64,000 nucleotides of DNA from assembly GCA_048571215.1 (NCBI GenBank), contig CP182352.1, positions 2,624,001 to 2,688,000 of the forward strand. Reading direction: 5' to 3'. Each line of letters opens with the position of its first letter. The stretch's first letter is position 1. Made by a program: the position numbers and the translations under genes. The notes under the pieces are model-generated. The model saw only the letters and a list, made by a program, of their open reading frames with translations. It was not told where the DNA came from and did not search any database. This stretch comes from Halarcobacter sp. (GTDB taxonomy: Bacteria; Campylobacterota; Campylobacteria; Campylobacterales; Arcobacteraceae). Of this stretch, positions 44,549 through 61,596 are shown piece after piece.

Positions 44549-45094
44549 TTGCTAAGACTTGGTTCAAACTCTTCCACACGCGCAAAAATATTAAATGATA
44601 ACAATATAGAATTTATACAAAATGGAGGAGATTTTGATGAAGATAAAATCAAAACTAAAAATCCAAAATCATTTGTATATGAAGCAACTATAGGCAAATA
44701 TAATGAACTAATTAAAAAATATGGATGTGATGATATGCCCCTACTAGTAGCTGATTCAGTGGTAACAGCAAATAATCAACTTCTAAGAAAAGCAAAAGAT
44801 GAAGAAGATGCAAGAAAAATGCTAGAGCTTCAAAGTGGAAACAAAACCTCTGTTATAACTTGTATGATATACCATAGCAAAGAAAAAAAAGTTATCGATA
44901 TCTCAATCACAACATATAAATTTGAAGAGTTTGATAAAACGCATATGGAAAACTATATAAAATCAGGTGAATGTTTTGGAAAAGCAGGAGCAATTATGGT
45001 TGAGGGGTTTTGTAAGCCTTATATAAAAAGTGTTATAGGATATGAAAGTACTGCAATGGGACTTTGTGTTGAGAAGTTGAAGATTTATCTTTGA
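44549..45094 (+). CDS. maf: Maf family nucleoside triphosphate pyrophosphatase
   Basis: LGSNSSTR, VADSVV, GKAGA, MGL; AAGGA SD with TTG start. Confidence 0.93.
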   Translation: MLRLGSNSSTRAKILNDNNIEFIQNGGDFDEDKIKTKNPKSFVYEATIGKYNELIKKYGCDDMPLLVADSVVTANNQLLRKAKDEEDARKMLELQSGNKTSVITCMIYHSKEKKVIDISITTYKFEEFDKTHMENYIKSGECFGKAGAIMVEGFCKPYIKSVIGYESTAMGLCVEKLKIYL

Positions 45095-45456
45095 AAAATT
45101 AGAAATTTTCTAACAGAATAATTATAAAAAAAAAGTAAACCTGTTACTATGATTTTTGATACACCTACATCTATTTTCAATAAATCATGAAAACAGTATA
45201 ATAGGAATAGATTTAAAACTAGACTTGTAGCACTCACAATGTATATTAGAAAAATCTCATGATGTTTTTTAAACTTTTTACCACTTTCAAATACAAACTT
45301 TATACTCAAATAATAATTCACAAAAGTTGCAATAATAAAAGTAAAAAATCCTACTACTAAATAATTATATGATAAAAATTTTGCAAAAATAAAAAATAAA
45401 CCTACATCAACAACTGCTGCAGTCCCACCTACGAAAAAATATTTAATAATTTTCAA
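45085..45456 (-). CDS. GtrA family lipid-linked sugar flippase
   Basis: KYFFVGG.AAVVD, NYYLS.KFVF, YNY..RKFLIF; 4 TMs. Confidence 0.92.
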   Translation of the reverse strand: MKIIKYFFVGGTAAVVDVGLFFIFAKFLSYNYLVVGFFTFIIATFVNYYLSIKFVFESGKKFKKHHEIFLIYIVSATSLVLNLFLLYCFHDLLKIDVGVSKIIVTGLLFFYNYSVRKFLIFQR

Positions 45457-45534
45457 TTATATAGCCTTTTAAATTACAAATTAATTGTATTAAAATAATA
45501 CTTATTATAAAATTATCTATTTAAAGATTATTAA

Positions 45535-47021
45535 ATGGAGCACTTATTAAAAAAATTATTTCAAGTAACTTTTTACCTTACATTATCTTTTTTATATTAT
45601 CTTTTTTAATAATCATATCATTTGGCTATACTATGCATAGTGATGGTTGGCGCCATTTAGCTATGGCATTAAATAAAAATGAAATTGGCTCATGGGATAA
45701 AATTTTAATTCATTCTCTTTACAAGAATTATGACCCTTGGTTTATTTGGCATCAATTTTTAAAAATTATTATAATTTTATTTAATAAAGATAATGTACAT
45801 ATTGTTGTAAACCTTATTGTATATTTTTCACTATCTTCTTGGTATTTTTTAACTCTTAAACAATTTGCAAAAATCAATATCTATTTTATTATATTAATCT
45901 CAATTTTTACACCAATTCTAAATGAAAGATATTTTCAACTAAGACCCGATATTGTAATTGGATTACTTATGTTATATCTAATTATAAAAAAAAATATAAT
46001 CACTTATACTATAACAATACTCTTAGCTCCATTATACTATCTCTTTTGGTTCTTTTTAGGATACCTTGCCTTAATTAAAATAGTTTTAAAAGATTATAAA
46101 AGTTTCTTTTATATTTCCATATCTATATTTATTGGATTTTTAATATATTTTCTTTATGATTATGAACAGTATATATATATTTTAAAGCTTGTATTTAGTA
46201 ATGATCAATTAACTTCAAAATTTACGGTAAATGAAAGTTTACCTGTTTTTATACCCTTAGAATTAAAAAATTATATTGGCAGTGCTTCTTTACTCTTTAT
46301 ACTATTTTCAAGTTCAGTATTCTGCTTATATAAGTTAAAAATTAAAAACAAACTGCTTAAATATTTTATTCTCTTTCTACCTTTAATGCTCATTCAAAAT
46401 AGATTTTTTGATTTGCTTCAACCTCTTTTTATCACTGCTTCAATTATAATAAGTATAAAAATCAAAAATTATGTAGATTCATATGGAATAAAAAAACCAA
46501 TTAATCATATAAAAACTTTTATTGATGAGAAAACATATTTTAGTCTTATAAAGAAAAAACATTTCCCAATTTTATTATTTATATTTTTATTAGGCATTTT
46601 TATTTATATATTTATTTCATATAAAAATAAATATACTAATCAATATCAATATATCCTTTCACATAAATTTATTGCTGAAAAAGAATTCCACAATAAACGA
46701 ATTTTTATAAACAAAATGTATACTCTAATGGATGTCTCATTCTTATTTAATCCAACAGCACAATACCTTCCTAACTTTTCTTTAGGTTGGGTTGACTATA
46801 ATACACCAAACAAAAAAATCTATTTCAAAATATTAAGTAGTTATCAAAAAGTTTCACAAAAAGAACTTATTGGTTTTTTAAAACTAAATGAGATAGATTA
46901 TTTTATTATTGATACTAAATTTAAAACTAATTTAACCGTTTCTAATAAAGAAATGAAGCATAATGGTTATAAATTTTATAAAATAATTGATGATTATATA
47001 ATATTTAAGAGAGACAATTAA
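45535..47021 (+). CDS. Putative GT-C-fold membrane glycosyltransferase, paralog 1 (5' end ambiguous: frameshift at A7 or ATT start)
   Basis: Polytopic with [29 protein letters not shown] shared with 48424-49908; frame open from 45525 but first in-frame ATG is 45633. Confidence 0.65.
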
Positions 47022-47024
47022 AAA

Positions 47025-48443
47025 ATGAAGAAAAATGTGATTATTATCGGTGCTGGCCCTGCTGGCTTAACTGCTGCCTATGAATTGCTGAAAACAAAAA
47101 ATTATAATATAACAATTTTAGAAGACTCTGAATATATAGGTGGTATTTCAAAAACCTTTAATCATAATGGAAATCGCATTGATATTGGAGGACATAGATT
47201 TTTTAGTAAAATCAAAAAAGTCAATTCTTGGTGGGATGAAGTTTTAGATGAGAATTTTTTGATAAGAAATAGAAAATCAAGAATCCTTTATGAAAGAGAT
47301 TTTTATGATTATCCTGTAACTTTAAATAAAACAACCATTAAAAATTTAGGCTTAACTAGATTTATTAAAATTGGTTTTTCATATCTAAAAGCAGCTATTT
47401 TTAAAAGAGATGAAAAAACTTTAGAAGATTTTTTTATCAATAGATTTGGGTATGAACTTTATGCTACTTTTTTTAGAGATTATACTGAAAAAGTTTGGGG
47501 TGTTCCTTGTAATAAGATAGATGCACTATTTGGACATCAAAGGATAAAAGGCTTATCTATTAGTTCTGTATTACTACACATGTTAAAAAAATCTTTTGGT
47601 AGTTTAAACTCTAAAAATATAGAAACTTCTTTAATAGAAGAGTTTAAATACCCCAAATATGGTCCTGGTCAACTTTGGGAAAATGTTTCAAAAAAGATCG
47701 AAACTCTAGGTGGAAAGATAATATTTAATGAAAAAGTTGATACATTAAAAATCAAAAAAAACCATACAATAAAAATTAAAACCCAAAACAACTCTTATGA
47801 AGCTGATTTTATCTTCTCATCTATGCCAATCAAAGATTTAATAAACACAATTAAAAAAGCTCCGTCAGATATAAAAAACTTAGCAAATAATTTAGAATAT
47901 AGAGACTTTATAACAGTAGGTCTATTACTTAAAAACTCTAAATTAGATACTTTAAAAGACAATTGGATTTATATTCAAGAATCTGATGTAAAAATAGGAA
48001 GACTTCAAATATTTAATAATTGGTCTCCTTTTTTAGTAAAAGATAAAAATACAACTTGGATAGGATTGGAATACTTTTGTAATGAAAATGATGAACTTTG
48101 GAATATGAAAGAAGAAGAGTTTATCAACTTTGCAATTTCAGAATTAGAAAAATTAGATTTAATAAAAAAAGAGTCTGTAATTGATTCTATTCAATTGAAA
48201 GTAAAAAAAGCCTATCCTTCTTATTTTGGTTCATATGATAGATTTGATGAAATCAAAAAGTATTTAAATACTATAGAAAATCTATTTTGTATAGGAAGAA
48301 ATGGTCAACATAGATACAATAATATGGATCATTCTATGATGACAAGTTTTGAAGCAGTAAAAGCTTTAGAAACAAATAGTTCAAAACAGAACCTTTGGGA
48401 TATAAATACAGAAAAAGAGTACCATGAATCAACTTCTAAATAA
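47025..48443 (+). CDS. FAD-dependent oxidoreductase, UDP-galactopyranose-mutase-like
   Basis: [38 protein letters not shown]; mutase function is inferred. Confidence 0.8.
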
Positions 48444-49908
48444 TAAATATTTTAATATTTTAATATTCCCATTATTTTTTATTTTTGGTCAAGTAGTATC
48501 AAACTTGATGAATTATACCATGTTTGATGATGGATGGAGACATCTTGCTATGGCATTTTACAAAGATGAGATGGGTAGTTGGGGAGAACTTTTTATTCAC
48601 TCTTTATATAAAGATTATGATCCTTGGTTTATGTGGCATAATCTTTTAAATCTTTTATCAACCATATCATCAAATGATAAAGTGCATATCTTAATAAATG
48701 GTTTTGTTTATGCAGCCTTATCAAGCTGGTTTTATATTGTATTTAAAAAATATTCTAAATTTGATATTTATTTAACAATATTTTTATCGTTAATGCTACC
48801 TATTTTAAACTATCGATATTTTTATCTCAGACCTGATTTATTAAGTGGTTTATTTTTATTATATTTTATGTTAATTCAAAAAAGATACCTTATAGTTTTA
48901 GTTTCTTTAATCTATATGCCATTTTATTATGTATTTTGGTTCTATTTTGGATATTTAGGAATATTAAAACTATTTTTAAAGAAATATAAAGACTTAATAC
49001 TTTTGATTATTCTTTGTATTATTGGTTTTATTTTTCATCTCTCTTATGATTTTAATGGTTTTATTGATACCACAATGAACGTATTAAACAATGATACTCT
49101 ATTGCAAGGTCAATCTGTAGGTGAAAGTAATCCAACTTTTTTCCCTCTATCAATAAAAAACTATTTTGGAACTACAATTTTATTAGTGTTTTTTCTAATG
49201 CTATCTTATCTTTTTTATATTGTATTTAAACCTAAAGATAGATTATTAGAACTTCTGATTTTTTTCGCCCCATTGATTTTATTGCAAGCTAGATTTTACG
49301 CACTTTTATATCCCTTAATCTTAGCCTATGCAGCTATTTTGACTCATAGGTTTTGCAAACTTATCTATGAAAATAGTTTAAGTTATACTATAGATTTAAT
49401 TGTAAACTTTATAAAAAACAGATCATATCTTGGAAATATTCCCAAAAAATATTATAAAACAATTTTAATAATTCTAATCTCTTCAATTTTAATTTTTACA
49501 TTTACTGATAAAATTTTCTCATATAGAAAGTTTAGTAATGATGTAAAAGATTTAAACTTTATTGCTAAAGAAGAGTTTAAAAATAAAAGGATTCTATTTA
49601 CTACAATGAATATATCTTTATATATTAGTATATACAAAAATCCAACAGCAAAATATCTTCCTAGTTGTTCTTTAGGATGGGTTGATTACAAAGATAAAAA
49701 ACTTAAAAATACTTATTTTAATTTAATAACTAATTCAGATAAACTAAATAACCAAGATTTTTTTAAGTTTTTAAAGTATAATAAAATTGATGTAATAATT
49801 GTAGATAAAGATACAAATAATCTTAAGTTTAATAATGTAGAAATAAGCGATTTTGGTTATAAGTTTTATAAATTATATAAAAATAATATAATTTTTATAA
49901 AAAATTAA
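48424..49908 (+). CDS. Putative GT-C-fold membrane glycosyltransferase, paralog 2
   Basis: TM1 followed by acidic DDGWRHL loop, LRPD, about 11 TMs, soluble C-terminal domain. Confidence 0.7.
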
Positions 49909-49921
49909 AGTATATCTAAGC

Positions 49922-49950
49922 TATAATGAATAAATAGTTTAATTTAGGAG
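49922..49950 (+). promoter_or_regulatory. Putative sigma70 -10 box and SD of flp1
   Basis: TATAAT at 49922-49927; AGGAG at 49946-49950. Confidence 0.6.
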
Positions 49951-49956
49951 TTAAAA

Positions 49957-50154
49957 ATGTTAGATTTCTTAAAAAGAAGATTAAAGTCAGAAAAAGGTGC
50001 TATGGATAAAATCCTTGTTACATTGTTATTAGTTGTTATTGGTGTTGGTCTAGTTGTTGGTCTACAATCGTGGGTTGGATCTCAAAAAAATGCTTTACAA
50101 AACTCAGCAAATAATGTTATAAACAGTGCTAAAAACAACGCAAATAATAGCTAA
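49957..50154 (+). CDS. Flp-like pilin 1 (probable major pilin)
   Basis: 65 aa; basic leader ending KSEKG, about 20-residue hydrophobic helix, amphipathic tail; strong SD; heads the tad cluster. Confidence 0.85.
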   Translation: MLDFLKRRLKSEKGAMDKILVTLLLVVIGVGLVVGLQSWVGSQKNALQNSANNVINSAKNNANNS

Positions 50155-50203: not shown

Positions 50204-50398
50204 GTGAATATGAAACTTTATATAAAACTTAAATCACAAAAAGGTGCCATGGATAAAATCCTTGTTACTTTGTTACTTACTATTGTTGCTGTTGTTGCCA
50301 TAATTGGTATTGAACAATGGTCAAGTAGTAAAAAAGATGAGTTAAAAAATCAATCAAACAATACAATAACAAAAATAAAGAATGAAATAAATCAATAA
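50204..50398 (+). CDS. Flp-like pilin 2
   Basis: LKSQKGAMDKILVTLLL is nearly identical to flp1; start GTG 50204 or ATG 50210. Confidence 0.82.
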   Translation: MNMKLYIKLKSQKGAMDKILVTLLLTIVAVVAIIGIEQWSSSKKDELKNQSNNTITKIKNEINQ

Positions 50399-50830
50399 AT
50401 GATCTTTTCTATATCATTTTATATTTTTTCACTTTTCATTTCATATATTGATTGTAAAAAACGACTTATTCCAAATACTCTTTTGCTTACATTAACTTTT
50501 TTTTTGTTAATTTTTGGTTACTTAGAAAATAAGCTACATATCTATTCTTTTCTTGTATTATTATTAATTTTACTTTTTTTTGTTATAATAGTATTGATAG
50601 TCCCAAAGATGATTTTAGGTGGTGGAGATATAAAGTACTTTATGGTTGTAGCAATATATTTGCAACCTCTTTATTTCCCATTATTTTTACTATTTTGTGG
50701 TATATTTCAATTTATTTTATTGATATATTTTCAAAACATAAAAAAAAGGCGTACAGCTCCAATGGCACCAGCTATAATTTTTGCTGTATTTATAACTGAA
50801 ATAGTTAAAAGCTTAGAAATCTACCTTTAA
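50399..50830 (+). CDS. A24 prepilin peptidase (TadV/CpaA-like)
   Basis: YIDCKKRLIPN and GGGDIK catalytic aspartates; APMAPAI; no methylase domain. Confidence 0.92.
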   Translation: MIFSISFYIFSLFISYIDCKKRLIPNTLLLTLTFFLLIFGYLENKLHIYSFLVLLLILLFFVIIVLIVPKMILGGGDIKYFMVVAIYLQPLYFPLFLLFCGIFQFILLIYFQNIKKRRTAPMAPAIIFAVFITEIVKSLEIYL

Positions 50831-50850
50831 ATAGCTCCAAGGAGTCTCTT

Positions 50851-53235
50851 ATGAAAAAAGCAATGATAGAACAGATAATGATAGGTGGTATCCTCTTTAC
50901 CATGCTAACACTATTTGTTGCAACAGTATATGATGAAAAATCTGCAAGAGATAGAACTTATGAATTAAAAACAACAGCACAAGAAGTTTCAATAGGTCTT
51001 GCTAAATACTATGAAGATCAAATGGATATGTGTACAGCTGAAAGTATTGTAACAGAGATATTAAAAAAAACTACTACAGGTCAGTTTTTACTTGATAATA
51101 ATTTGATCTCATTTCAATGGAAAAACTTAAAACCAGATAGTGATGGTGATGGTGTAGGAGATGATGGTGAACCTGATACTATTGTAACTACAATTGCACA
51201 ACATGATTATGATACTTTTTGGTATAAACTTTTTGGTTTAAATAAATTTCAAATTGGTCCTTTTACTGAAACTAAAGAAGTTCAAACACCTAAAAATGTA
51301 AATATTACGTTTGGTGGGCAAAATGCTGGTTATACAAATATGATAGGTACTTATCAATTAGACCAAAACAATTGTGTTATAAATACTCAACTTATTTTAG
51401 CAAATTCAAAGGACAATAGTAAAGTTGGTTCAAAACTTGGGAGTACAATTCAATCACCACCAACTTTTATATTTATCATGCCAAATGGATACCAAGAATT
51501 TAAAGAAAAAGGTTATACTCCCAGTGAAACTGATGTAATTAATATATCAAATCATTGTTTTGGGGCAAACACACAACCTGACTTATCTATAGGTAACACA
51601 TCATTAGGAAGCAATGGTAGAATTTATTTTGAACAAACAGAACTTAATAGTGACAAGTATGAACATATTCAAATTATTCCTGATAGTATTTGGAAAACAT
51701 ATAATGACTATGTAAATGGACAAGGAGATTTTTCGGGACAAGGAACTAAATCGTATGATGATTTTATGAGTTATTGTGAACAGATAAATTCTGACAGTGA
51801 CCCAAGTAATGATATGAATTGTAAAGACGATCCAAATGATGAATACCAATATGCAATGGAAGATTTAGATGATGGTGGAGATGAAGATTTTAATGATATT
51901 TTCCTAAATACAACAAGAATAGCTATACCAAATAAACTTAATGATTTTGAAATAGATCCTCATAATGGGAATATATCATTAACATGTAATAATAATAATA
52001 ATAATAAACCAACTATATCTATTGAAAATTGTCCTGATTCAATAGATGAAGATACAAGTTTTACTATAAATTGGACAGCTTCTGATAGTGATGGAAATGT
52101 TATAACAACTGATGCTGCTGCTGATAATGGTTCTGTGGCAATTAATGGTACTGCAGAAAATGGAACAGTCGGATATACTCCAAATACTAACTATTTTGGT
52201 CAAGATACAATTACTATGCAAACAACTGATAATAGTGATAATAGTACATTTGCATATTGTACTTTTAATGTAATAGAAGTAAATGACCTTCCTACAATAT
52301 CTGGAACACCTATAACCACTGCAGATATTGGGAAAGTTTACTCATTTATTCCTACAGCATCAGATGTAGATGGAGATCCCCTAACATTTTCAATTGAAAA
52401 TAAACCACAATGGGCTTCATTTAACTCTGCAACAGGCCAATTAATTGGTACACCTTACGATTCAGATGCAGGTACATATTCTAGTATTGTGATTAGTGTA
52501 TCAGATGGAAGAGGTGGAACAGCATCTCTTGAACCATTTAATATTTTTGTACCACACTCTGATACAAACCCTAAACTTTTAAGTAATATTCCTGACCAAA
52601 GTGTAACAGAGAAAACTACATTTTCTTATAGTACAAGTCAACATTTTGAAGATCCTAATGGAGATATATTGACATACTCTATAGATCAGTCAGAATATGC
52701 AGGAAATATAAACTCAAATACAGGTTTAATAACTATCAATATACCTGATAATACAGCAGGAGATACAATAACATTAACAGTTAGAGCAACAGATCCAGGA
52801 GGATTAACTGTTGCTGATACATTTGTATTAACAGTTAGTGCTAATACAGAATGTACAATAGATGAAACTGATGACTTTAGTGATGATAATCACGCGTGGT
52901 CGGGTGGAAATAAAACACTTTTATATCACTATAAAATAGATAGAGATACTACTGCCTACAAAACATATGATTTTGGTTCTGGTTGTAAAAATACAAATGT
53001 GTCACTATCTTTTCAATATTATACACCATATTACTGGGAAAATGCTGATAAGTTAAAGTTATATATTAACGACTCATATTCTACAGAATATTCTAGATCA
53101 AATGGTAAATGGACATCAAAATCAATAAATCTACAAACAGATTCAAGCGGTAAACTAAAAGTCGGACTAATGCCTGATTCAAATAAAAATAATGAAATTG
53201 TATATATTGATAATATAAATATTAAAAATCAATAA
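50851..53235 (+). CDS. Large TadG-like pseudopilin/adhesin with Ig/cadherin-like repeats
   Basis: Pilin-like N-terminus; DSDGDG; EDLDDGGDEDFND; ASDSDGN, ASDVDGDPLTFS..KPQWASF..TGQL.GTP and FEDPNGDILTYS repeats; C-terminal beta domain ending YIDNINI. Confidence 0.78.
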   Translation: MKKAMIEQIMIGGILFTMLTLFVATVYDEKSARDRTYELKTTAQEVSIGLAKYYEDQMDMCTAESIVTEILKKTTTGQFLLDNNLISFQWKNLKPDSDGDGVGDDGEPDTIVTTIAQHDYDTFWYKLFGLNKFQIGPFTETKEVQTPKNVNITFGGQNAGYTNMIGTYQLDQNNCVINTQLILANSKDNSKVGSKLGSTIQSPPTFIFIMPNGYQEFKEKGYTPSETDVINISNHCFGANTQPDLSIGNTSLGSNGRIYFEQTELNSDKYEHIQIIPDSIWKTYNDYVNGQGDFSGQGTKSYDDFMSYCEQINSDSDPSNDMNCKDDPNDEYQYAMEDLDDGGDEDFNDIFLNTTRIAIPNKLNDFEIDPHNGNISLTCNNNNNNKPTISIENCPDSIDEDTSFTINWTASDSDGNVITTDAAADNGSVAINGTAENGTVGYTPNTNYFGQDTITMQTTDNSDNSTFAYCTFNVIEVNDLPTISGTPITTADIGKVYSFIPTASDVDGDPLTFSIENKPQWASFNSATGQLIGTPYDSDAGTYSSIVISVSDGRGGTASLEPFNIFVPHSDTNPKLLSNIPDQSVTEKTTFSYSTSQHFEDPNGDILTYSIDQSEYAGNINSNTGLITINIPDNTAGDTITLTVRATDPGGLTVADTFVLTVSANTECTIDETDDFSDDNHAWSGGNKTLLYHYKIDRDTTAYKTYDFGSGCKNTNVSLSFQYYTPYYWENADKLKLYINDSYSTEYSRSNGKWTSKSINLQTDSSGKLKVGLMPDSNKNNEIVYIDNINIKNQ

Positions 53236-53243
53236 ATATATCG

Positions 53244-53275
53244 CTAAAGAGATATAAAGATTTATATCTCTTTAG
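53244..53275 (+). terminator. Hairpin after the adhesin gene
   Basis: CTAAAGAGATATAAA-ga-TTTATATCTCTTTAG 15 bp inverted repeat; TATAAT follows at 53316-53321. Confidence 0.7.
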
Positions 53276-53355
53276 TTAATTAAAATCAATTAAATGTAAA
53301 TTTATTTTATTTTATTATAATATAAAATTAAGTTTGTACCCAAAGAAGGAACAAA

Positions 53356-54951
53356 ATGGATTATAAAACGTACCAAACATATACAGATATACAAGGTGCC
53401 TTAGATATTAGACGAGAAAATGTTATAGAAATATTAAACTTATTTGTACTTATTTCAAATATTGGTAAACTAACTTTTTTAAAATACGATTTTAAATTTA
53501 ATAACTTTGTGTATAACTTTACAATTGATGGACATAATACAATAGATGATGATATACATTTTATGAATAACAAGTTCTCTATTGTATTAAAAGAGGGTGA
53601 TATTATCTATGGTAAAATAACCTTCAACAAAAGAATCTGGTATAGGCAAGTTTTAAAAGAGTTATTAAAAAAAGCAAAAGTATCATTAAGAAATATTTTT
53701 GAGATTGAAAAAGATCTACTTTCACAAAACACCCCATTAAACATCTATATAATAACAGATAAAAATACAATCAAATTTGCAAATAAATTACAAACAAACC
53801 TTGATATTCTACTAAATGCAGAAATAAGTATTTTGCATGATATCACAAGAATTACAGAAAAACTAAATGCAAAAAATTCTAAAAATATTATAATCTATAC
53901 TATTCAAAATGCAGAATTAATAAATGATGATAAACAAATCATTGAAAACTTTAATGAGTTTGTAATAGTGATTGGTCCAAATGACCATAACCTTTCACTT
54001 ATGTGTGGACAACTAAATATACACAGTTATGTTTCAATTAGTGAATTCTCACCTGAACATGTCAAAAACCTTATTTTAGACACAAAATATAAACTTATTA
54101 ATAAAAATAAACAAGATAATAAAATTTTTGCAATAACTGGAATCTCTGGTGGTATTGGAACAACTACAGTGTCAATGAATACAGCAGATATAATTGCTAA
54201 AAACTCTCCAAATAAAAATGTTTTATATGTGGATTTGTCAACTACAAAAGCTATTAGTAATCTATTTTTATCACAAAATCCTGTACCAAACCATTCAATT
54301 ATAGACTTAGTTAATTTTGGAGATTTTAATATCCAGAAAAATCTTGATTTGGGATTAGTTAAGGTTAGAGAAAATTTTTATGCTATCAATGGAATACAAA
54401 AACATATTGATAGAGACCTCTTAGAAAAAGATACTTTTATAGAAAAACTTTTAGATTATCTAATAAAAGCTAGTGAACATTTTAATGTAATAATTATAGA
54501 TACTGGTGCTGCTGATGCCTCAGCTCTTAAAAGTACTATTTATGATTTGGTAAATGAAATCTGGATATTAACAGAAATGACCCTACCCCATGTATCAAAA
54601 CTAAAAACCTTTTATTCACTTATGAAAAGAGCTGGACTAAAAGATAAAGTTAGTTTTATAGTAAATAGAGTTAACTCTTTAAATGAAATCTCATCTTCAG
54701 ATTTTGATTCTATCATGAATACAAGTGCAAAAGATGAAAAACTTGTATATTTAAAGATACCAAATGATTATGAAACCCTAGGAAAATGTTGGAATTACTG
54801 TGAATTGGCAAATCAAGTTTCTAGTACTTCACCTTTTGTTAAAACCATTGAAGAGATAATCTTGCAAAAAGATTTGATTGGGGATAAGATTGAAAAAACA
54901 AAAGTAAAAAAAAGTTTATTTTCATTTTTAGCAAATAAGGACAAAAGTTGA
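53356..54951 (+). CDS. TadZ/CpaE-like localisation protein (MinD/ParA fold)
   Basis: AITGISGGIGTTT..N.A, VLYVDL, IIIDTG, IVNR, IPND; immediately before tadA. Confidence 0.85.
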   Translation: MDYKTYQTYTDIQGALDIRRENVIEILNLFVLISNIGKLTFLKYDFKFNNFVYNFTIDGHNTIDDDIHFMNNKFSIVLKEGDIIYGKITFNKRIWYRQVLKELLKKAKVSLRNIFEIEKDLLSQNTPLNIYIITDKNTIKFANKLQTNLDILLNAEISILHDITRITEKLNAKNSKNIIIYTIQNAELINDDKQIIENFNEFVIVIGPNDHNLSLMCGQLNIHSYVSISEFSPEHVKNLILDTKYKLINKNKQDNKIFAITGISGGIGTTTVSMNTADIIAKNSPNKNVLYVDLSTTKAISNLFLSQNPVPNHSIIDLVNFGDFNIQKNLDLGLVKVRENFYAINGIQKHIDRDLLEKDTFIEKLLDYLIKASEHFNVIIIDTGAADASALKSTIYDLVNEIWILTEMTLPHVSKLKTFYSLMKRAGLKDKVSFIVNRVNSLNEISSSDFDSIMNTSAKDEKLVYLKIPNDYETLGKCWNYCELANQVSSTSPFVKTIEEIILQKDLIGDKIEKTKVKKSLFSFLANKDKS

Positions 54952-56549
54952 GAAACTTAAGAAATCTAATAGCCGAAGAGGAACAGAAAAAAGAGATAAA
55001 AAAACAATCTTTTAGTGTGGAAAAAGCTCAAGAAGATGAGTCTTCAAATGATTTAGCCCCTATAAAAAAGATAGAACAGTTAAAACTAAAAAGTAGACAT
55101 ACAGGTCTAAAGTTTCCAGAAATATATTTGAATAAGAAACTTTTAGATTTAGCTTATGAGATAAACGACACTTTTATGTTAAATCTAAAATCTGATAAGA
55201 AAATCACCAGAGAATCTTTAGAAGAGGTTTTACCAGAGTTTATTTTATCATTTAAGCCAGCCAAAAACCTATCTAAAGAGTACTTAGATGATATAAAAGA
55301 GTTTATTATAAACAATGTTATTGGATATGGTCCAATTACAGCCTTATTTGATATTGCAAAAGATGGGTTGAATGATGTTATTGTAAATACAAGAGAATAT
55401 ATTGATATTATATATCAAGGTAAAACAATTGAGACTCCATTTACCTTTAGAAGTGAGGATGAATTAAGAAAAGTAATTGATAAGATGCTTGCTGAAAATA
55501 ATAGGAAAATTGATGAAGCACACCCTATTATGTCAAGTAAATTAAAAGATGGTTCCAGAGTAGAGGTTCAAATACCACCTATTGCAGCTAATGATGGAAG
55601 CTGTGTAACCATAAGAAAGTTCAACGATTTACCATTGTTATTGGAGTTTTTAATAGATTCTGGTCAAATGGATTACAAAATGGCATATTTCTTATTAAAA
55701 GTTGCAAAAGGAAAATGTAATATTATCGTTTCTGGTGGTACTTCAAGTGGTAAAACTACATTTTTAAATGCCATGACTAGGTTTATTGATGAAAATGAAC
55801 AACTAATGGTTATAGAAGATACAAAAGAGATGCAACCTCAAATGCCATGTCACTCTATTAGACAATATGAAGCTAGAATGGCAAATGAAGAGGGAAAAGG
55901 TGCTATTACCTTAGACTTTTTATTACGTTCAGCACTTAGATCATCTCCAAGAAGAATTGTAGTTGGTGAGTGTAGAGGTGGGGAAATAGTTGTTATGCTT
56001 AATGCCATGAATACAGGACATCCAGGTTCAATGACTACAGTGCATGCCGATAATACAAAAGAAGCCTTAGTAAGAATTGAAAATATGTATCTAGAAGCTA
56101 GACCAACAGCTAATATCAACTTTATTAGAGCTCAAGTTGTATCTGCTATTGATATAATTATACAACTAGTAAGATTTCCTGATGGTTCAAGAAAACTAAT
56201 CACTATCTCAGAAGTTGAAAAAAGAATAGAAGACAATGCTGTAATATCTTTAAATAATATCTTTGAATTTAAAAGAGATACTAGTGATATGACAAAAACT
56301 AGAGGAAGTTTTGAGATTGTATCAACTCCTACTAGAACAGTGACTCAAATGAATATGTTTGGTGTAGATATAGATATGGGAATTTTTAATAAAGAGTTTG
56401 AGATGCCAAAATCTATGTTGATTGAAGAGTTAGAAAAAGATTTACCAACTAAAATGTGTGGTTGGAGACCTGATTATATGGATATTTTTCTAGAAAAAGA
56501 TCCTCAACTATTCCATAAATGGCCACATTTCCAAAAAGTAGAGAATTAA
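54948..56549 (+). CDS. tadA: TadA/CpaF pilus assembly ATPase
   Basis: GYGPI, LKDGSRV, TIRKF, SGGTSSGKTTFLN, IEDTKE, PRRIVVGECRGGE, MNTGHPGSMTTVHA. Confidence 0.95.
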   Translation: MRNLRNLIAEEEQKKEIKKQSFSVEKAQEDESSNDLAPIKKIEQLKLKSRHTGLKFPEIYLNKKLLDLAYEINDTFMLNLKSDKKITRESLEEVLPEFILSFKPAKNLSKEYLDDIKEFIINNVIGYGPITALFDIAKDGLNDVIVNTREYIDIIYQGKTIETPFTFRSEDELRKVIDKMLAENNRKIDEAHPIMSSKLKDGSRVEVQIPPIAANDGSCVTIRKFNDLPLLLEFLIDSGQMDYKMAYFLLKVAKGKCNIIVSGGTSSGKTTFLNAMTRFIDENEQLMVIEDTKEMQPQMPCHSIRQYEARMANEEGKGAITLDFLLRSALRSSPRRIVVGECRGGEIVVMLNAMNTGHPGSMTTVHADNTKEALVRIENMYLEARPTANINFIRAQVVSAIDIIIQLVRFPDGSRKLITISEVEKRIEDNAVISLNNIFEFKRDTSDMTKTRGSFEIVSTPTRTVTQMNMFGVDIDMGIFNKEFEMPKSMLIEELEKDLPTKMCGWRPDYMDIFLEKDPQLFHKWPHFQKVEN

Positions 56550-56552
56550 AAT

Positions 56553-57482
56553 ATGGATAATACTATCATAATACTAATATTTGCAATCCCTATATTAACT
56601 ATTTTAGTTATAGTTTTAGGGTATAAATATTATTATGAACTTGATAGAAGAAGTAAAATTATAACTTTACTAAAAAAAGATAATAATGAGATATTAGATG
56701 AAAAAAAAAGAAAAAGATTTACAAAAAAAGAGCGAAATTGGCTTGGAAAAAAACTTGCATATGCAGGTTTTCCCCATCCTATCGCAGAGATAATTTATAT
56801 TCTAACCTCGATTATTTTTGGATTCTTAGCTGCAACTTTTATAAACTTTGTAATTCCGAATCCTATAGTGTTTGCTTTAAGCTTTTTAGCTTTTTGTTTT
56901 TTCCCTTTACTTGTGTTAAAAAAAATTATAGATGGTAGGCAAGAAGATTTTAACTTTGGATTAAAAGTTATCATTGATAAAGTAACTAGTATGATGAAAA
57001 GTGGTGTAGGTTTTGAACAAGCTTTAAAAAAAGCAGTTGCTACATCAAGGTCTAAACTTGCTAAAGAGACTTTTGAAATATATTTAAATGAAAAAGATAT
57101 TATAGGTGAAGATAAAGCATTTCAAAAGATGTTTACAGTTGTAGAATCAAGGGAACTTAGAATTTTTTACCTAACAATTTCTATTGGTAGGCAATCTGGT
57201 GGTAAGTTTTCAAATACTTTAGATAAACTAAGAAAAGCTTTACATGCCCAAGGGGAAATAAAACAAGAGATAACTGCCTCAACAAAAGAGGTAAAGGTAG
57301 GAAGTTATATGATTATAGGTTTAGTTATATTTATCTATAAGATGTTAAATAGTTCTTTAGATGGAGTTTTAGATGAACACTTTTTTGGCACAAGTGAAGG
57401 GCAGATACAAATGTTTTTTATAATTTGTTGGGTTACCTTTGGGGTGTTTGTAAATAGTATGTTATCAAAAATAAAGGCATAA
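56553..57482 (+). CDS. tadB: TadB inner-membrane platform protein
   Basis: L..AG after TM1, MKSGVGFEQAL, QSGGKFSNTLDKL; T2SSF-like; follows tadA. Confidence 0.85.
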   Translation: MDNTIIILIFAIPILTILVIVLGYKYYYELDRRSKIITLLKKDNNEILDEKKRKRFTKKERNWLGKKLAYAGFPHPIAEIIYILTSIIFGFLAATFINFVIPNPIVFALSFLAFCFFPLLVLKKIIDGRQEDFNFGLKVIIDKVTSMMKSGVGFEQALKKAVATSRSKLAKETFEIYLNEKDIIGEDKAFQKMFTVVESRELRIFYLTISIGRQSGGKFSNTLDKLRKALHAQGEIKQEITASTKEVKVGSYMIIGLVIFIYKMLNSSLDGVLDEHFFGTSEGQIQMFFIICWVTFGVFVNSMLSKIKA

Positions 57483-57483
57483 A

Positions 57484-58326
57484 ATGAGTCCAATATTTTT
57501 CCTTCCAATTTTAATTGTAATTATAGGTATAATACTTTGGTATTTTTATGATACAAGAGGGACTAAAAAGAAAATCATTTTACTTTCAAAACTTGATGCC
57601 CTTGCAATTATTGACCAACAAAAAAATGTAAAAAGTAAAAAAGAGACTGAACAGAGTACTGATTTAAATCTACAGCTAATACAAGCTGGTCTTACAAAAA
57701 AAGAGTACAACGAAGGCAAGCTGGTATTTGCTTTAATAGGAATTATAATTGGAGTTTCTTTTCCTGTATTTTTTTCTACAAAAATTGGGATAATTGGTGT
57801 TGTTGTAGGGCTTATAGCAATAATATTTGGTGGGAAAATGTATCTTTCAATCTCTAAAACTGAAAGAACCGAAAAAATCAATAATGATTTAGGTGTATTT
57901 TTAGATTTGATTAATGTTATTTTAGAAGCTGGTGGCGGTTTAAAAAATGCTTTTTTTACTGTATCCACAAGAGCTCATAATATTTTAGACGAAGAGTTAT
58001 TAAAAGAAGTAGCTATTTTAGAGTATGAGATGACAAACTACTCAACAAAAAAAGCCTATGAAAACTTAAAAAAAAGAGTTGATTCAGATGATGTTTCAAA
58101 AATAGTTGATTTTTTAATTTTAAGTGAAGAAGCTGGTATTGGTGTAAAAAATATCTTTTCAACTCAAAGTGATGAGATGAGACAAGAAAAATTTTATAAA
58201 ATTAAAGGTAAAGTTAATACACTTAATATGTATTTAATGTTAGTAATATTTATCTTTGTAATTCCTGCATTAGGAGCATTTATTGTTTTTCCAATGCTTG
58301 CAGGAAAATTAGATTTTGGCATGTAA
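57484..58326 (+). CDS. tadC: TadC inner-membrane platform protein
   Basis: LIQAG, FLDLINVILEAG, SEEAG.....F..QSDEMR, FIFVIP. Confidence 0.87.
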   Translation: MSPIFFLPILIVIIGIILWYFYDTRGTKKKIILLSKLDALAIIDQQKNVKSKKETEQSTDLNLQLIQAGLTKKEYNEGKLVFALIGIIIGVSFPVFFSTKIGIIGVVVGLIAIIFGGKMYLSISKTERTEKINNDLGVFLDLINVILEAGGGLKNAFFTVSTRAHNILDEELLKEVAILEYEMTNYSTKKAYENLKKRVDSDDVSKIVDFLILSEEAGIGVKNIFSTQSDEMRQEKFYKIKGKVNTLNMYLMLVIFIFVIPALGAFIVFPMLAGKLDFGM

Positions 58327-58335
58327 AGGAATAAT

Positions 58336-59499
58336 ATGAAGTTCGATAAACAGTTAGCTATAATTTTAGTTTTAATATCACTACTATTGTCAGCAATAGG
58401 TATCTCTATATATTTTTATAATAAAAATGAGCAAACAAAAAAAGAGAATAATCAATTAGTTAAAATATATGTAGCTAAAAATAATATTAAACAAAATACT
58501 CTTATAAAAGATAAAGATATAAAAGAAACAACAGTAGCTAAACAGTATGTATTGACAAAACCTTTACTAAAACAAGAGATTATAAATAAATATGCAATAG
58601 AAAATATCTATGCAAATGAGCAATTTTTAAAAGAAAAACTTTCAGTAACACCTCAAATAAAAAGACAATTAAGTAAAATATTAGACTATAACTACTCAAG
58701 TTACAATATGTCTTTTAAATTATTTAAAAATCCAAACTATTCTATACAACCAAATGATGTAATAAAAATTATTTCAGTATATCCTATGGATTCAGAAAAA
58801 AATAACTATAAAGTTAGATATGTAGCAAAAAATATTAAAGTCTTAGGTTTCTTAAGTGATGGGAAAGAGATAGAAAAAGCAATATACAAAAAAAAGGTAA
58901 AGAGGTTTGAAAAAAAACAACAAATTGAAGAGATTGTAGATATAAAATCAGATGAAATGATTTTAGATATTAAAGAGGATGTATTATTATCTTTGATTAG
59001 TGACTTCAACAAAGGTAACCAACTTTGGATGGTTAAATCAAAAATGGAAAATGATACAAAAGATGTTAAAAAAGTAACTAAAATTGATAAATCAAAACTA
59101 AATAAAACAAAAGTTAATAAAAGTTATAAACCTAAAAAAGTATATTACCCTATAACTTGGTATAAACCAGCTACTACTTATGAAACAAAAACAGCTATGA
59201 TTACTTATGCAAATGACTCTAAGAAAACTGATATCAAAAAAGCAAAAGTTGCATCTGATTACCAAAAAGAGTGTAGTGAAACTAATAAGTTATTATTAGT
59301 AAAATCTAGAACTGTTTACCTAAGAGAAGCTCCATCAATAAGAGCAAAGATTGATAAAAAAATTGCTAAGAACTATATCTTACCTTATGTATCAATTTCT
59401 AAAATAAACCCAAATTGGTATATGATATGTGATGAGACTTATGTACAAAGAAAAGATGTAGAAGTTATAACATATGATGATTATAAAAGGTTAAAATAA
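58336..59499 (+). CDS. RcpC/CpaB-like protein with SAF domain and C-terminal SH3b-like domain
   Basis: N-terminal TM; YVAKNNIKQNTLIKDKDI (SAF), IQPNDVIKII, NIKVL; VYLREAPS....W...YV. Confidence 0.75.
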   Translation: MKFDKQLAIILVLISLLLSAIGISIYFYNKNEQTKKENNQLVKIYVAKNNIKQNTLIKDKDIKETTVAKQYVLTKPLLKQEIINKYAIENIYANEQFLKEKLSVTPQIKRQLSKILDYNYSSYNMSFKLFKNPNYSIQPNDVIKIISVYPMDSEKNNYKVRYVAKNIKVLGFLSDGKEIEKAIYKKKVKRFEKKQQIEEIVDIKSDEMILDIKEDVLLSLISDFNKGNQLWMVKSKMENDTKDVKKVTKIDKSKLNKTKVNKSYKPKKVYYPITWYKPATTYETKTAMITYANDSKKTDIKKAKVASDYQKECSETNKLLLVKSRTVYLREAPSIRAKIDKKIAKNYILPYVSISKINPNWYMICDETYVQRKDVEVITYDDYKRLK

Positions 59500-59502
59500 A
59501 AT

Positions 59503-59931
59503 ATGGAAAAAAAACAGATGAAAAAAGCAGCCATAGAAAATATTCTAATATGGATGGTACTGTTTACAAGTTTTGCTACTTTCTTTTTTTTTATAATTAA
59601 CTATGCAACCATATTAAGAGTACAGGATAATATGATTGCTATATCAGATTATGGAGCAAATTATGTTGCAGCAAATGGAATAGGTGATAATATATCTACA
59701 GATCTAAACAGAATAAAAGTAGATGGTATAAATACTATAAGTAGTGCAGATACTGGAGTTATTTGTAATGAAGTTTCAAATGTACCTTTAAACTTTACAG
59801 TAATATTCAAAACAGAAACAACAAATACTTCATATAAGTTTTATGGAGACAGTTTATCGGCAACTAAAGCAGTATTCAACCAACAAAGTGGTAATACAAT
59901 AACATGTACACTAAAAATAACCTTGAAGTAG
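59503..59931 (+). CDS. TadE-like pseudopilin
   Basis: KKAAIENILIW + hydrophobic helix, then ISDYGANYVA resembling AAREGAR; two Cys. Confidence 0.7.
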   Translation: MEKKQMKKAAIENILIWMVLFTSFATFFFFIINYATILRVQDNMIAISDYGANYVAANGIGDNISTDLNRIKVDGINTISSADTGVICNEVSNVPLNFTVIFKTETTNTSYKFYGDSLSATKAVFNQQSGNTITCTLKITLK

Positions 59932-59940
59932 GAGAGAGTA

Positions 59941-61596
59941 ATGAGATTTTTTAAACTGAAGTTAATTTTTTTATTTTTATCATTTATTACATTAAATGCT
60001 TATGATATTAATGATAAGGTAATTTACCAAAAAGATTTTGAAAATAAAACAATTTATTTACCATTAAATAACTATAGAACGTTAATATTTGAAGATAGAA
60101 TTAAAAGTATTCAATTAACAAATAGTGAAAATATAACAGCTGAGTTTGTAGATAATAAAATCAGACCTCTGCAAATGTTAAAAATTCTAGGTAAAAATAT
60201 TGGAAGTGAAAGTGCAGTAGTAATCTTAGAAAATGATAAACTAATACAAATAAACTTTAGTATCATGAAAAATTTAGACAATATTATCACCATAGTTAAA
60301 AATACTTACCCTAATTTAATTGTAGAACAAGCAAATGATACTTTAGTATTAAAAGGATATGTTAAAGATTATAAAGAAAAAGATTTAGTAATAGAGATAT
60401 TCAAAAAAGCTGGTGTTGATATAGAAAAAAATTTAGTTAATATGATTGAAACCTCTAGTCCATCAAAAATGATAAAAATTAAAATGTATGCAGTTGAAAT
60501 AAATAATGATAATGGTATAGATTTAAAGAATAATTGGACATTATCAAGCAAAAATTATATGAAAGTTAACGGAGATAATGGATATGTAAACTATCCATCA
60601 AGTTCTTATGGTAGGCCATATATAGAAAGAGATGTTTATTATGATGATGTAGTCAGTATGAGTGATCCAAACTATAATCCTGATTTAACAGGTACAATTA
60701 TACGAAAAGAGATAGAATTTTTAGTTGATAATCAGAAGAATTATCAAAATGTAAATAACCAAAGGAATGAAGGTCTTGATGATGCTTTACAAAATATCAT
60801 CTCTAGTGCAGTTACATTAACAGGAGGATTGACAGGAGTTGCTAACTATTTAGGTAAAAACTTTAATGCAGGCTTAATGCTAAACTATCTTTCAACGGAA
60901 GGAGTTGCAAATGTACTAGATGAGACTACATTGTTAACTTTAGAGAATAAAAATGCCACTTTTCACGCAGGTGGTACTATTATGATTAAAACCCAAACAA
61001 CATCAGCTGAAGGACTCCCTAACTCTACTATTGAACCTATTGATTATGGTTTACAATTAGATTTCAAAGCAAAAAATATAATGAAAAACGAATATATTGA
61101 TTTAGAGATAGATACCAAGTCTACACAAATAGATTGGACAAATCAAGTTGATGGAATACCAAGTTTTCTTGAAAAGAAAATAAAAACAAATGTATTAGCA
61201 CAAAATGGGCATACTATTGTAATTGGTGGACTAGTAAATAATGAAAATTCAAATGACATAAGTAAGATTCCTCTTTTAGGTGATATTCCTATATTAGGAT
61301 TTTTATTTAAAAGTAAATCGTTTAAAGAAGGGAAAAGTGAACTTGTATTTTTTGTAACTCCTGAAATAGTAAGTCCAGAAAATAATAATCAAGAAGAGTT
61401 ATTAAAAAAGACTTCAAAAAAGATTTTAGATACTTCAAGATACAAAAAAAGTCTATTATTTGATAATGATGAAGATAAAAAAAGTGAAAAAAAGAAAAAA
61501 GAAAAAGTCTTGCCAGAAACTACGCCTAATACTGACACTTCAACAACAAAACCTCTAAATCACAAAGAGATTGTAGATAAAATTTATGGTAGATAA
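59941..61596 (+). CDS. RcpA/CpaC secretin
   Basis: Signal peptide, Pil_N-like (ILGKNIGSE), BON-like (LVLKGYV), GHTIVIGGLV, KIPLLGDIPILGFLFKS, ELVFFVTPEIV. Confidence 0.93.
   Translation: MRFFKLKLIFLFLSFITLNAYDINDKVIYQKDFENKTIYLPLNNYRTLIFEDRIKSIQLTNSENITAEFVDNKIRPLQMLKILGKNIGSESAVVILENDKLIQINFSIMKNLDNIITIVKNTYPNLIVEQANDTLVLKGYVKDYKEKDLVIEIFKKAGVDIEKNLVNMIETSSPSKMIKIKMYAVEINNDNGIDLKNNWTLSSKNYMKVNGDNGYVNYPSSSYGRPYIERDVYYDDVVSMSDPNYNPDLTGTIIRKEIEFLVDNQKNYQNVNNQRNEGLDDALQNIISSAVTLTGGLTGVANYLGKNFNAGLMLNYLSTEGVANVLDETTLLTLENKNATFHAGGTIMIKTQTTSAEGLPNSTIEPIDYGLQLDFKAKNIMKNEYIDLEIDTKSTQIDWTNQVDGIPSFLEKKIKTNVLAQNGHTIVIGGLVNNENSNDISKIPLLGDIPILGFLFKSKSFKEGKSELVFFVTPEIVSPENNNQEELLKKTSKKILDTSRYKKSLLFDNDEDKKSEKKKKEKVLPETTPNTDTSTTKPLNHKEIVDKIYGR

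Follow-up and report, generated by a model that had tools for sequence, protein, structure and literature searches.

A GtrA, flavoprotein and GT-C cassette beside the Tad pilin genes of Halarcobacter sp. and its exchange for a GtrB-type cassette in relatives

We analyzed a stretch of 64,000 nucleotides (the window; contig CP182352.1, positions 2,624,001 to 2,688,000) from the closed 3.61 Mb genome of Halarcobacter sp., labelled G000 below. Directly before the putative prepilin genes of a Tad pilus the window carries a cassette coding for a GtrA-family protein, a flavoprotein and two paralogous membrane proteins, A and B, with predicted GT-C glycosyltransferase fold. Relatives swap the whole cassette at the same pilin-adjacent site for one with a GtrB-type glycosyltransferase, as in the serotype-converting gtr operons. 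The initial annotation had described a candidate pilin-glycosylation cassette; the point that goes beyond it, and is more unusual, is that the genome lacks a GtrB, in the cassette as well as elsewhere, and that the GtrB of the relatives stands in the place of the flavoprotein.

The four open reading frames were recovered as annotated. The gtrA gene (45085-45456) lies on the minus strand and codes for a small membrane protein (Pfam PF04138, GtrA_DPMS_TM, E 3e-18), predicted to be a flippase for undecaprenyl phosphate (Und-P)-linked sugars. Divergent from it, on the plus strand, follow the genes of A (45546..47021), the flavoprotein (47025-48443) and B (48424-49908), with a gap of 3 bp between the first two and an overlap of 20 bp between the last two, and B ends 48 bp before the first prepilin gene, flp1. 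The G+C content of the cassette is 21-26%, compared with 28.5% genome-wide.

Two forms of the cassette at one site

We searched 184 genomes of the family for the GT-C gene, which 28 of them have, and mapped all 28 loci. The gene is accompanied by gtrA and the flavoprotein gene in 12 loci and by the gene of a GtrB-type glycosyltransferase of family GT2 in the other 16, here together with gtrA, scored where the contig reaches it (the call for genome G144 rests on a 58-aa fragment); no locus has both beside the GT-C. Close orthologues of the flavoprotein were found in 12 of the 184 genomes, in all 12 beside this GT-C. The GtrA tree (25 rows) divides by donor gene with a support of 100, and the gtrA of the window is the only one in the source genome. 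When mapped onto the tree of TadZ plus TadA, the cassette type changes 7 times among 21 linked loci, which is no better than with shuffled labels, and a single clade for cassette type is rejected by the approximately unbiased (AU) test (p-AU 1e-6). From the seven changes and the rejection of a single clade we conclude that whole cassettes have been exchanged beside the pilins.

The GT-C of genomes G011 and G032 nests among the GtrB-partnered enzymes, to which it is 43-53% identical, compared with 28-36% to the other flavoprotein-partnered ones. A second independent swap from GtrB to the flavoprotein in this pair appears on the best tree but was discarded, as the AU test does not reject a single clade (p 0.28). 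The flavoprotein tree comprised 21 rows, including 10 outside loci kept after a motif filter and halving.

In the closed source genome we found no GtrB-like synthase among 9 GT2 matches, the best of which reach 58-61 bits, over the N-terminal part only and, in those scored, without C-terminal helices, compared with 330-507 bits for true members. Nor did G011 and G032, which consist of 1 and 2 contigs, yield a full-length GtrB-like gene at a threshold of 1e-12, and the GtrB-like matches of G098 and G180 are only partial. Since the closed genome has no GtrB-like synthase, the flavoprotein likely supplies a lipid-linked furanose in place of GtrB. Classical glf, the gene of the bacterial mutase, is present in 3 of the 12 flavoprotein genomes and in only 1 of the 16 GtrB-type genomes, so that the GtrB form probably delivers a pyranose.

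The co-occurrence with tad loci that the initial annotation had expected is strong. TadA is encoded in 60 of the 184 genomes, namely in 27 of the 28 with the GT-C versus 33 of the 156 others, and only 1 of the 124 TadA-negative genomes has the GT-C (Fisher p 1e-14, a value overstated by kinship). Of the 26 scorable loci, 23 adjoin flp/tadV and three (G011, G032, G175) do not, two further loci being on contigs that are too short. The pilin-adjacent cassettes occur in both orientations, and their far-side neighbours vary (maf, htpG, surE, sugar-pathway genes). From the 33 Tad-positive genomes without the GT-C we took 31, 23 of them with enough flanking sequence, and in none of these 23 did the flp flank hold a homologue of GtrA, GtrB, the flavoprotein or the GT-C.

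Outside the family we surveyed the flavoprotein in 71 of the best 80 loci (9 family loci were left out) drawn from 318 candidates. A GtrA gene lies within 2.5 kb in 39 of these 71 loci, a gene for a multi-helix membrane protein within 1 kb in 42, both in 28, and a GtrB-like gene in 2. The membrane neighbours scanned (45 of 46) comprise 16 of the PMT/PMT_2/GT87 families, 3 of DUF6020/DUF6541, 5 unrelated proteins, 1 fusion to the flavoprotein and 20 without a match. In locus L115 (6965-10141) the flavoprotein is fused to a multi-helix membrane domain, giving a protein of ~1050 aa, and in L063 (5009-6991) a DUF6020-GtrA fusion lies directly upstream of the flavoprotein. On viral contigs the GT-C was not found; the flavoprotein was, on 2.

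Folds and conserved residues

The flavoprotein belongs to NF005546 (PRK07208; 708 bits) and matches Amino_oxidase/NAD_binding_8 in Pfam. Its best sequence relatives in the PDB are eukaryotic UDP-galactopyranose mutases (UGM; E 6e-23, by profile 2e-33), and the same enzymes are the best fold matches of its model (pLDDT 87), with a TM-score of 0.82 to 4DSH, compared with 0.72-0.74 for protoporphyrinogen oxidases; in the Foldseek search UGM is ahead by 8 orders of magnitude. Over the eukaryote-type enzymes of Aspergillus fumigatus (3UTE/5HHF) and Trypanosoma cruzi (4DSG/4DSH) the TM-scores are 0.78-0.82 at ~20% identity. Of the eight UGM residues named in titles of PDB mutant entries, H63, F66, Y104, R182, Y317 and R327 are retained and invariant in all 40 aligned members, so that the histidine loop, both arginines and both tyrosines have equivalents; Q107 is replaced by Thr and N207 is unaligned. 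The initial annotation's mutase-like flavoprotein is supported by sequence and fold. Unlike UGM the flavoprotein has further invariant basic residues (R58, K62, R81, R86) and two basic amphipathic helices (108-125, 176-193) conserved across the alignment, and its genetic partners are GtrA and a GT-C, whereas that of the eukaryote-type enzyme is a cytoplasmic galactofuranosyltransferase. The protein begins with the FAD-binding Rossmann motif and therefore has no signal peptide. The bacterial Glf model PF03275 has no match in the genome, and against TIGR00031 the flavoprotein scores 35 bits (cut-off 304).

Protein B (494 aa) belongs to an unnamed family; its AlphaFold model (mean pLDDT 87, from 37 aligned sequences) combines an oligosaccharyltransferase (OST)-like membrane domain with a small C-terminal domain in the periplasm. 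All 20 Foldseek matches at E <= 0.001 are STT3, PglB, AglB or DPY19, with E 4e-6 for STT3/PglB/AglB. The independent structure aligner VIA puts PglB (Z 16.9, rmsd 5.2 over 407 residues) and STT3B (Z 16.9) first, followed by ALG12, Pmt, AftA, ArnT and AftD, with unrelated folds at Z <= 6.5; its top 20 rows, whose scores differ little, are all GT-C enzymes or GT-C-fold subunits of the glycosylphosphatidylinositol transamidase. By its model B thus has the GT-C fold, as had been suspected from sequence, and its paralogue A (40% identity over 467 columns, E 1e-106) presumably shares it. Neither protein has a Pfam or NCBIfam match or a sequence match in the PDB, and of 45 distant homologues one has a weak match to GT87.

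Both proteins show the acidic loop after the first membrane helix (SDGWRHL in A, DDGWRHL in B) and the later RP motif that the annotation had pointed out, and these motifs (the latter as RP-D) are conserved in the 37 aligned homologues. Invariant or nearly so are D36, D66-P67, R131, R136-P137-D138, V232-x-E234 and Q288-x-R290. In the first external loop D36 is found in all 35 sequences with that column and D66 in 37 of 37, while D35 is found in 33, with Ser in A; this first Asp of DDG is the only member of the set that is changed in A, which retains the equivalents of D36, D66, R131, D138, E234 and R290. For PglB we presume the numbering D154 and R375. Excerpts of PMC8342417 and PMC8479172 describe two acidic loops and the glutamate of a TIXE/SVSE motif in OSTs. 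The order of the residues in B matches this arrangement, V232-x-E234 (37 of 37, consensus SVGE) possibly corresponding to the SVSE/TIXE of PMC8342417; the pairing is our own reading, from sequence and order. The PglB/AglB/STT3 enzymes (GT66) resemble B in fold over the membrane and C-terminal domains, in the acidic first external loop, in R-x6-D and possibly in the V-x-E loop, whereas B is ~200 aa shorter, lacks a WWDYG motif in the C-terminal domain and a Pfam STT3 match, and is predicted to use a monosaccharide on Und-P. Transfer from a polyprenyl-(pyro)phosphate sugar is implied by the GtrB and GtrA neighbours of the GT-C in the 16 relatives.

The GT-C profile has no match in the C-terminal piece of the genome's own PglB. 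The coding sequence of this pglB-like gene is broken up into overlapping frames of 189 and 563 aa (L135 41-2196, corresponding to G000 C1 ~3390100-3392260, minus strand), by either a real frameshift or an assembly error.

Proposed pathway and its alternatives

From these data we propose that a lipid-linked furanose made by the flavoprotein is flipped by GtrA and transferred to the pilin by B, with A as an optional extra, a scheme whose chances of holding as a whole we regard as evenly balanced. Excerpts of PMC7662398 describe UGM catalysis as proceeding via a covalent adduct of the sugar with flavin N5, the UDP being displaced but retained. In our scheme reduced FAD would likewise attack a nucleotide-pyranose and the ring would contract on the flavin; undecaprenyl phosphate, not the nucleotide, would then take the sugar off. 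GtrA would carry the Und-P-sugar across the inner membrane, as expected from its family, and B, by its fold, could pass the sugar on to residues exposed on the tail of the pilin, with Asn as a candidate. A may act as a further modifier, on a second site or in chain extension. We are fairly confident that in one way or another the flavoprotein makes the donor for GtrA; that it loads the lipid itself has, in our estimate, slightly less than an even chance. Galactofuranose is presumably no more than the default for the sugar. The Tad pilin as acceptor appears reasonably probable. Excerpts of bioRxiv 150227 report that pilin glycosylation blocks phages in P. aeruginosa, and by analogy the exchange of cassettes likely serves phage-receptor masking. 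For the Tad pilus of C. crescentus, excerpts of PMC10710030 report no glycan density.

The candidate acceptors are the putative prepilins flp1 (49957..50154, plus strand), with the leader junction G|AMDKIL and an Asn-rich tail, and flp2 (50204..50398, plus strand; 52% identical to flp1). They have no Flp_Fap match (best Tad E 0.036) and were called pilins by their size, the basic leader followed by Gly and a hydrophobic helix, and the genes for an A24 peptidase and a complete Tad set that follow them. All 55 listed pilins (2 in the window, 53 related) have a mature start A-M/I-D-K/R-I/V-L/I; they were selected by this pattern, so that other forms could be missed. The listed pilins lack the Glu5 and Tyr6 of the Flp motif, which excerpts of PMC10710030 describe as conserved among the type IV and Tad pilins of bacteria. 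The fraction of Asn in the pilins is 0.14 in cassette-bearing genomes and 0.068 in others (24 versus 23 genomes), at positions 31, 35, 38 and 43, with TadA and TadZ unchanged as controls. Ser/Thr are reduced, not enriched, in the pilins of cassette-bearing genomes, and there is no conserved N-x-S/T sequon. The TadG-like protein with immunoglobulin (Ig)/cadherin domains (50851-53235), whose length in relatives varies between ~310 and 850 aa and which one genus lacks, is another possible acceptor.

The alternatives to this scheme lie on different axes. As to the acceptor, the GT-Cs might decorate lipooligosaccharide, lipopolysaccharide (LPS) or another surface glycan, as the classical GtrABC acts on O-antigen (excerpts of PMC11194591), and the cassette would merely share an insertion hot spot with the Tad genes. 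A number of observations count against a pilin acceptor, several of them directly in favour of a surface glycan. The complete genome G011 has the cassette and neither tadA nor flp, the cassettes of G032 and G175 are likewise unlinked from Tad, and in G132/G134 the cassette is placed between Tad and LPS-core-type genes. Among 17 metagenome loci of the GT-C, 10 adjoin a pilin gene (several are near-copies of genomes), 2 are short, 1 belongs to a distant Tad cluster and 4 are without Tad, so that four of the five loci outside the family are not beside Tad genes: L190, L192 and L193 have GT-C, GtrB and GtrA, and L191 (2.4 kb) GT-C and GtrA, each with no Tad gene in the DNA fetched. Phosphoethanolamine-transferase-like and O-antigen-ligase-family genes are found at the same site. 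The sequon pocket of OSTs has no visible counterpart in B. The Asn excess, which emerged from a comparison of five classes of residues, does not reach significance with only 6 independent pairs, and one genus shows the opposite trend. Finally, flp1 seems to have its own promoter, predicted from a TATAAT element and an AGGAG (49922..49950, plus strand). The TATAAT lies 35 bases upstream of flp1 inside the 48-bp gap, so that the closeness of B and flp1 is no proof of co-transcription; most relatives with the cassette have a similar element, read by eye, 31-38 bases upstream of the first flp, also where flp points away from the cassette, and a promoter scan was uninformative (59 sites, 55 expected). 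Nevertheless we hold a surface-glycan acceptor to be rather unlikely: the cassette stays by flp across several chromosomal sites and in both orientations, in the distant metagenome locus L189 the GT-C is found at the opposite end of the Tad cluster, the maf-dxs interval is without cassette and Tad machinery in 8 of 8 Tad-negative genomes examined, one of which keeps a flp/tadV remnant, TadA-negative genomes hardly ever carry the GT-C, and the best fold matches are OSTs with protein acceptors, even if the rows differ little.

As to the flavoprotein, it could be only a mutase acting on a nucleotide sugar or on a sugar linked to Und-P or undecaprenyl diphosphate (Und-PP), while an unlinked enzyme loads the lipid, which we consider unlikely but a serious contender. 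Its whole fold and active site resemble UGM, an Und-PP-sugar retains the diphosphate that UGM binds, and OST-like GT-Cs are established users of Und-PP donors. Suppliers can be named as well, namely two Bac_transf phosphoglycosyltransferases in the source genome, which could provide Und-PP-sugars, and WecA-like genes in G011, G032, G098 and G104. A full GtrB is encoded elsewhere in 7 of the 12 flavoprotein genomes, and a GtrB/DPM-synthase-like gene in 21 of 21 genomes tested outside the family, for which reason the argument from absence rests on three near-complete family genomes. These three (G000, G011, G032), however, have no GtrB-like gene, and no family of initiating transferase is common to all: G000 has only Bac_transf, of which G011, G032 and G098 have none. 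In addition the GtrB-like gene of G104 has a PMT_2 neighbour of its own, classical glf accompanies the flavoprotein in some genomes, and the G011/G032 GT-C is closest to GtrB-partnered enzymes. Very improbable in our view is a redox tailoring enzyme without mutase activity, DprE1-like, which would oxidize, reduce or perform half of an epimerization on the lipid-linked sugar. The Pfam match, the similarity to protoporphyrinogen oxidases and the FAD-dependent oxidoreductases, of this or another family, mentioned in a commentary for Bacillus three-component loci (excerpts of PMC11194591) would fit it, but UGMs come first by structure and by sequence, the histidine loop and both arginines are invariant, the single UbiA gene is unlinked and the cassette holds no partner reductase. 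The annotation had further suggested that the two paralogues work as priming and elongating enzymes or on different acceptors. The catalytic set is complete in both, apart from the leading Asp of DDG in A. On the tree A stands well away from B, on a long branch within the flavoprotein-partnered clade, and is thus no recent redundant copy, and the homologues P0005/P0025, whose longest contigs are equal in length, hint at a second two-copy locus. However, 27 of the 28 genomes have a single GT-C and only one has two, so that such a pair is not required; in relatives the slot of A is either empty or taken by another gene, for a sulfatase-fold transferase in G098 and for a Wzy_C protein in G104. 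As a general rule the suggestion is therefore not supported, and an obligate pair is improbable; one GT-C per pilin was rejected, since 7 genomes combine two flp genes with a single GT-C. What stands of the dedicated pilin pathway that had been proposed is the GT-C fold, the mutase-like flavoprotein and the Tad link.

Turning back to the scheme with the flavoprotein as donor supplier, it shares GtrA, a GT-C and an exchangeable cassette with the GtrA/GtrB/GtrC systems of Shigella and Salmonella phages (excerpts of PMC11127046 and PMC11194591), whose full GT-C/GtrB/GtrA set is present in the 16 type-II relatives; here GtrB is replaced by the UGM-like flavoprotein, and the cassette is linked to Tad pilins instead of a prophage or an O-antigen locus. 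With TfpW of P. aeruginosa Pa5196/PA7 (bioRxiv 2020.04.19.049825; 150227, both in excerpts), which we compared by description only, it has in common a GT-C of the DDX type by the pilin gene, a GtrA-like helper, a predicted furanose and possible phage masking, and excerpts of the first of these papers state that the DDX motif is needed in TfpW. TfpW, however, has 646 aa with a tetratricopeptide repeat domain, acts on Ser/Thr of a type IVa pilin and uses a donor from the route via phosphoribosyl pyrophosphate (PRPP), DprE1 and DprE2, so that the analogy drawn by the annotation holds for function and not for the donor. The genes of this D-arabinofuranose pathway (PPPRS, DprE1, DprE2) are not in the cassette, and UbiA is single and unlinked; DprE1/E2 were not searched genome-wide. 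The pentofuranose three-component systems of Citrobacter, as excerpts of PMC11127046 describe them, likewise transfer an extracytoplasmic furanose from an Und-P donor without GtrB, but make it from PRPP with a polyprenyl-phosphoribose synthase; the main text of that paper mentions no mutase, flavin or galactofuranose. The cassette thus works like GtrABC and TfpW but belongs to neither the GtrB nor the PRPP route.

In the published literature, of which we covered few subscription papers and no supplements, so that a mention there is possible (e.g., for the Bacillus loci of PMC11127046), we found nothing on the GtrA/flavoprotein/GT-C trio, on PRK07208, on a flavin-dependent glycosyltransferase or on Tad glycosylation in Arcobacter. 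The closed genome with GtrA and GT-C and without GtrB, together with sister loci that differ in the donor gene, makes a test case for a widespread flavoprotein family without assigned function, and new enzyme chemistry may be involved. Should the lipid be loaded by the flavoprotein, covalent flavin catalysis would no longer be confined to ring contraction but would include glycosyl transfer; should Flp be the acceptor, the locus would be a dedicated and often exchanged one for Tad-pilus glycosylation, with a bearing on phage-receptor masking and adhesion in marine Campylobacterota. Tentatively, and with more doubt than confidence, one may go further and regard the PRK07208 flavoproteins as flavin-dependent glycosyltransferases that convert a nucleotide-pyranose to an Und-P-furanose and replace GtrB, a fourth route to lipid-linked donors across phyla, which here would feed an OST-like GT-C acting on Tad pilins, possibly at Asn with no need of a sequon, the locus being switchable in the manner of serotypes.

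Start of protein A and neighbouring genes

When read from the first ATG (45633) A has 462 aa and is without its first helix. The open frame reaches back to 45525, and an ATT codon at 45546, five bases after a GGAG (ribosome-binding-like site and ATT at 45537..45548), yields 491 aa including helix 1. Because this helix, present in homologues, is restored only from there, we take the ATT as the probable start of A, on which the first membrane helix of the annotation depends. Near the start of A an out-of-frame ATG (45535) stands directly ahead of a 7-A tract; a frameshift artefact is unsupported, the contigs of runs X1 and X3 being identical to the window, though they may be its source.

The Tad machinery follows the prepilin genes at 50399..61596 on the plus strand. 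By Pfam and NCBIfam matches it comprises the A24 peptidase, the Ig-domain TadG-like protein, a TadZ-like ATPase, TadA, two T2SSF proteins, CpaB, a small TadE-like open reading frame and a secretin. In 400 other sampled genomes of the phylum the GT-C family was not found, though metagenome loci outside the family exist. In G085 (L171) a flp/tadV remnant without tadA is located between maf and dxs, a decayed Tad island.

Besides GtrA and the GT-C, G011 and G032 (L044, L041) have a long-form flavoprotein of 518 aa, and their cassette lies beside a sox sulfur-oxidation cluster. Genes of the Wzy_C (O-antigen ligase) family lie directly before flp in two genomes without the GT-C (L155 9328-10731, L158 56-1459), and two others have such a gene within the cassette or next to it (L034 12231-13487, L050 11831-13243); these genes possibly code for pilin O-oligosaccharyltransferases or for true LPS ligases. 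Sulfatase-fold, phosphoethanolamine-transferase-like genes lie in or beside the cassette in L032, L042, L043, L045, L050, L052, L054, L180 and L185. Stacked modules with a second GtrB-like gene, other membrane proteins and a methyltransferase are inserted between maf and the cassette in L031, L033, L040, L045, L051, L053 and L054. In both cassette types gtrA may be followed by a cluster of nucleotidyltransferase, dehydratase, thiamine pyrophosphate-enzyme and HMGL-like genes (L030, L048, L179), which we take to resemble CDP-dideoxy or branched-sugar pathways.

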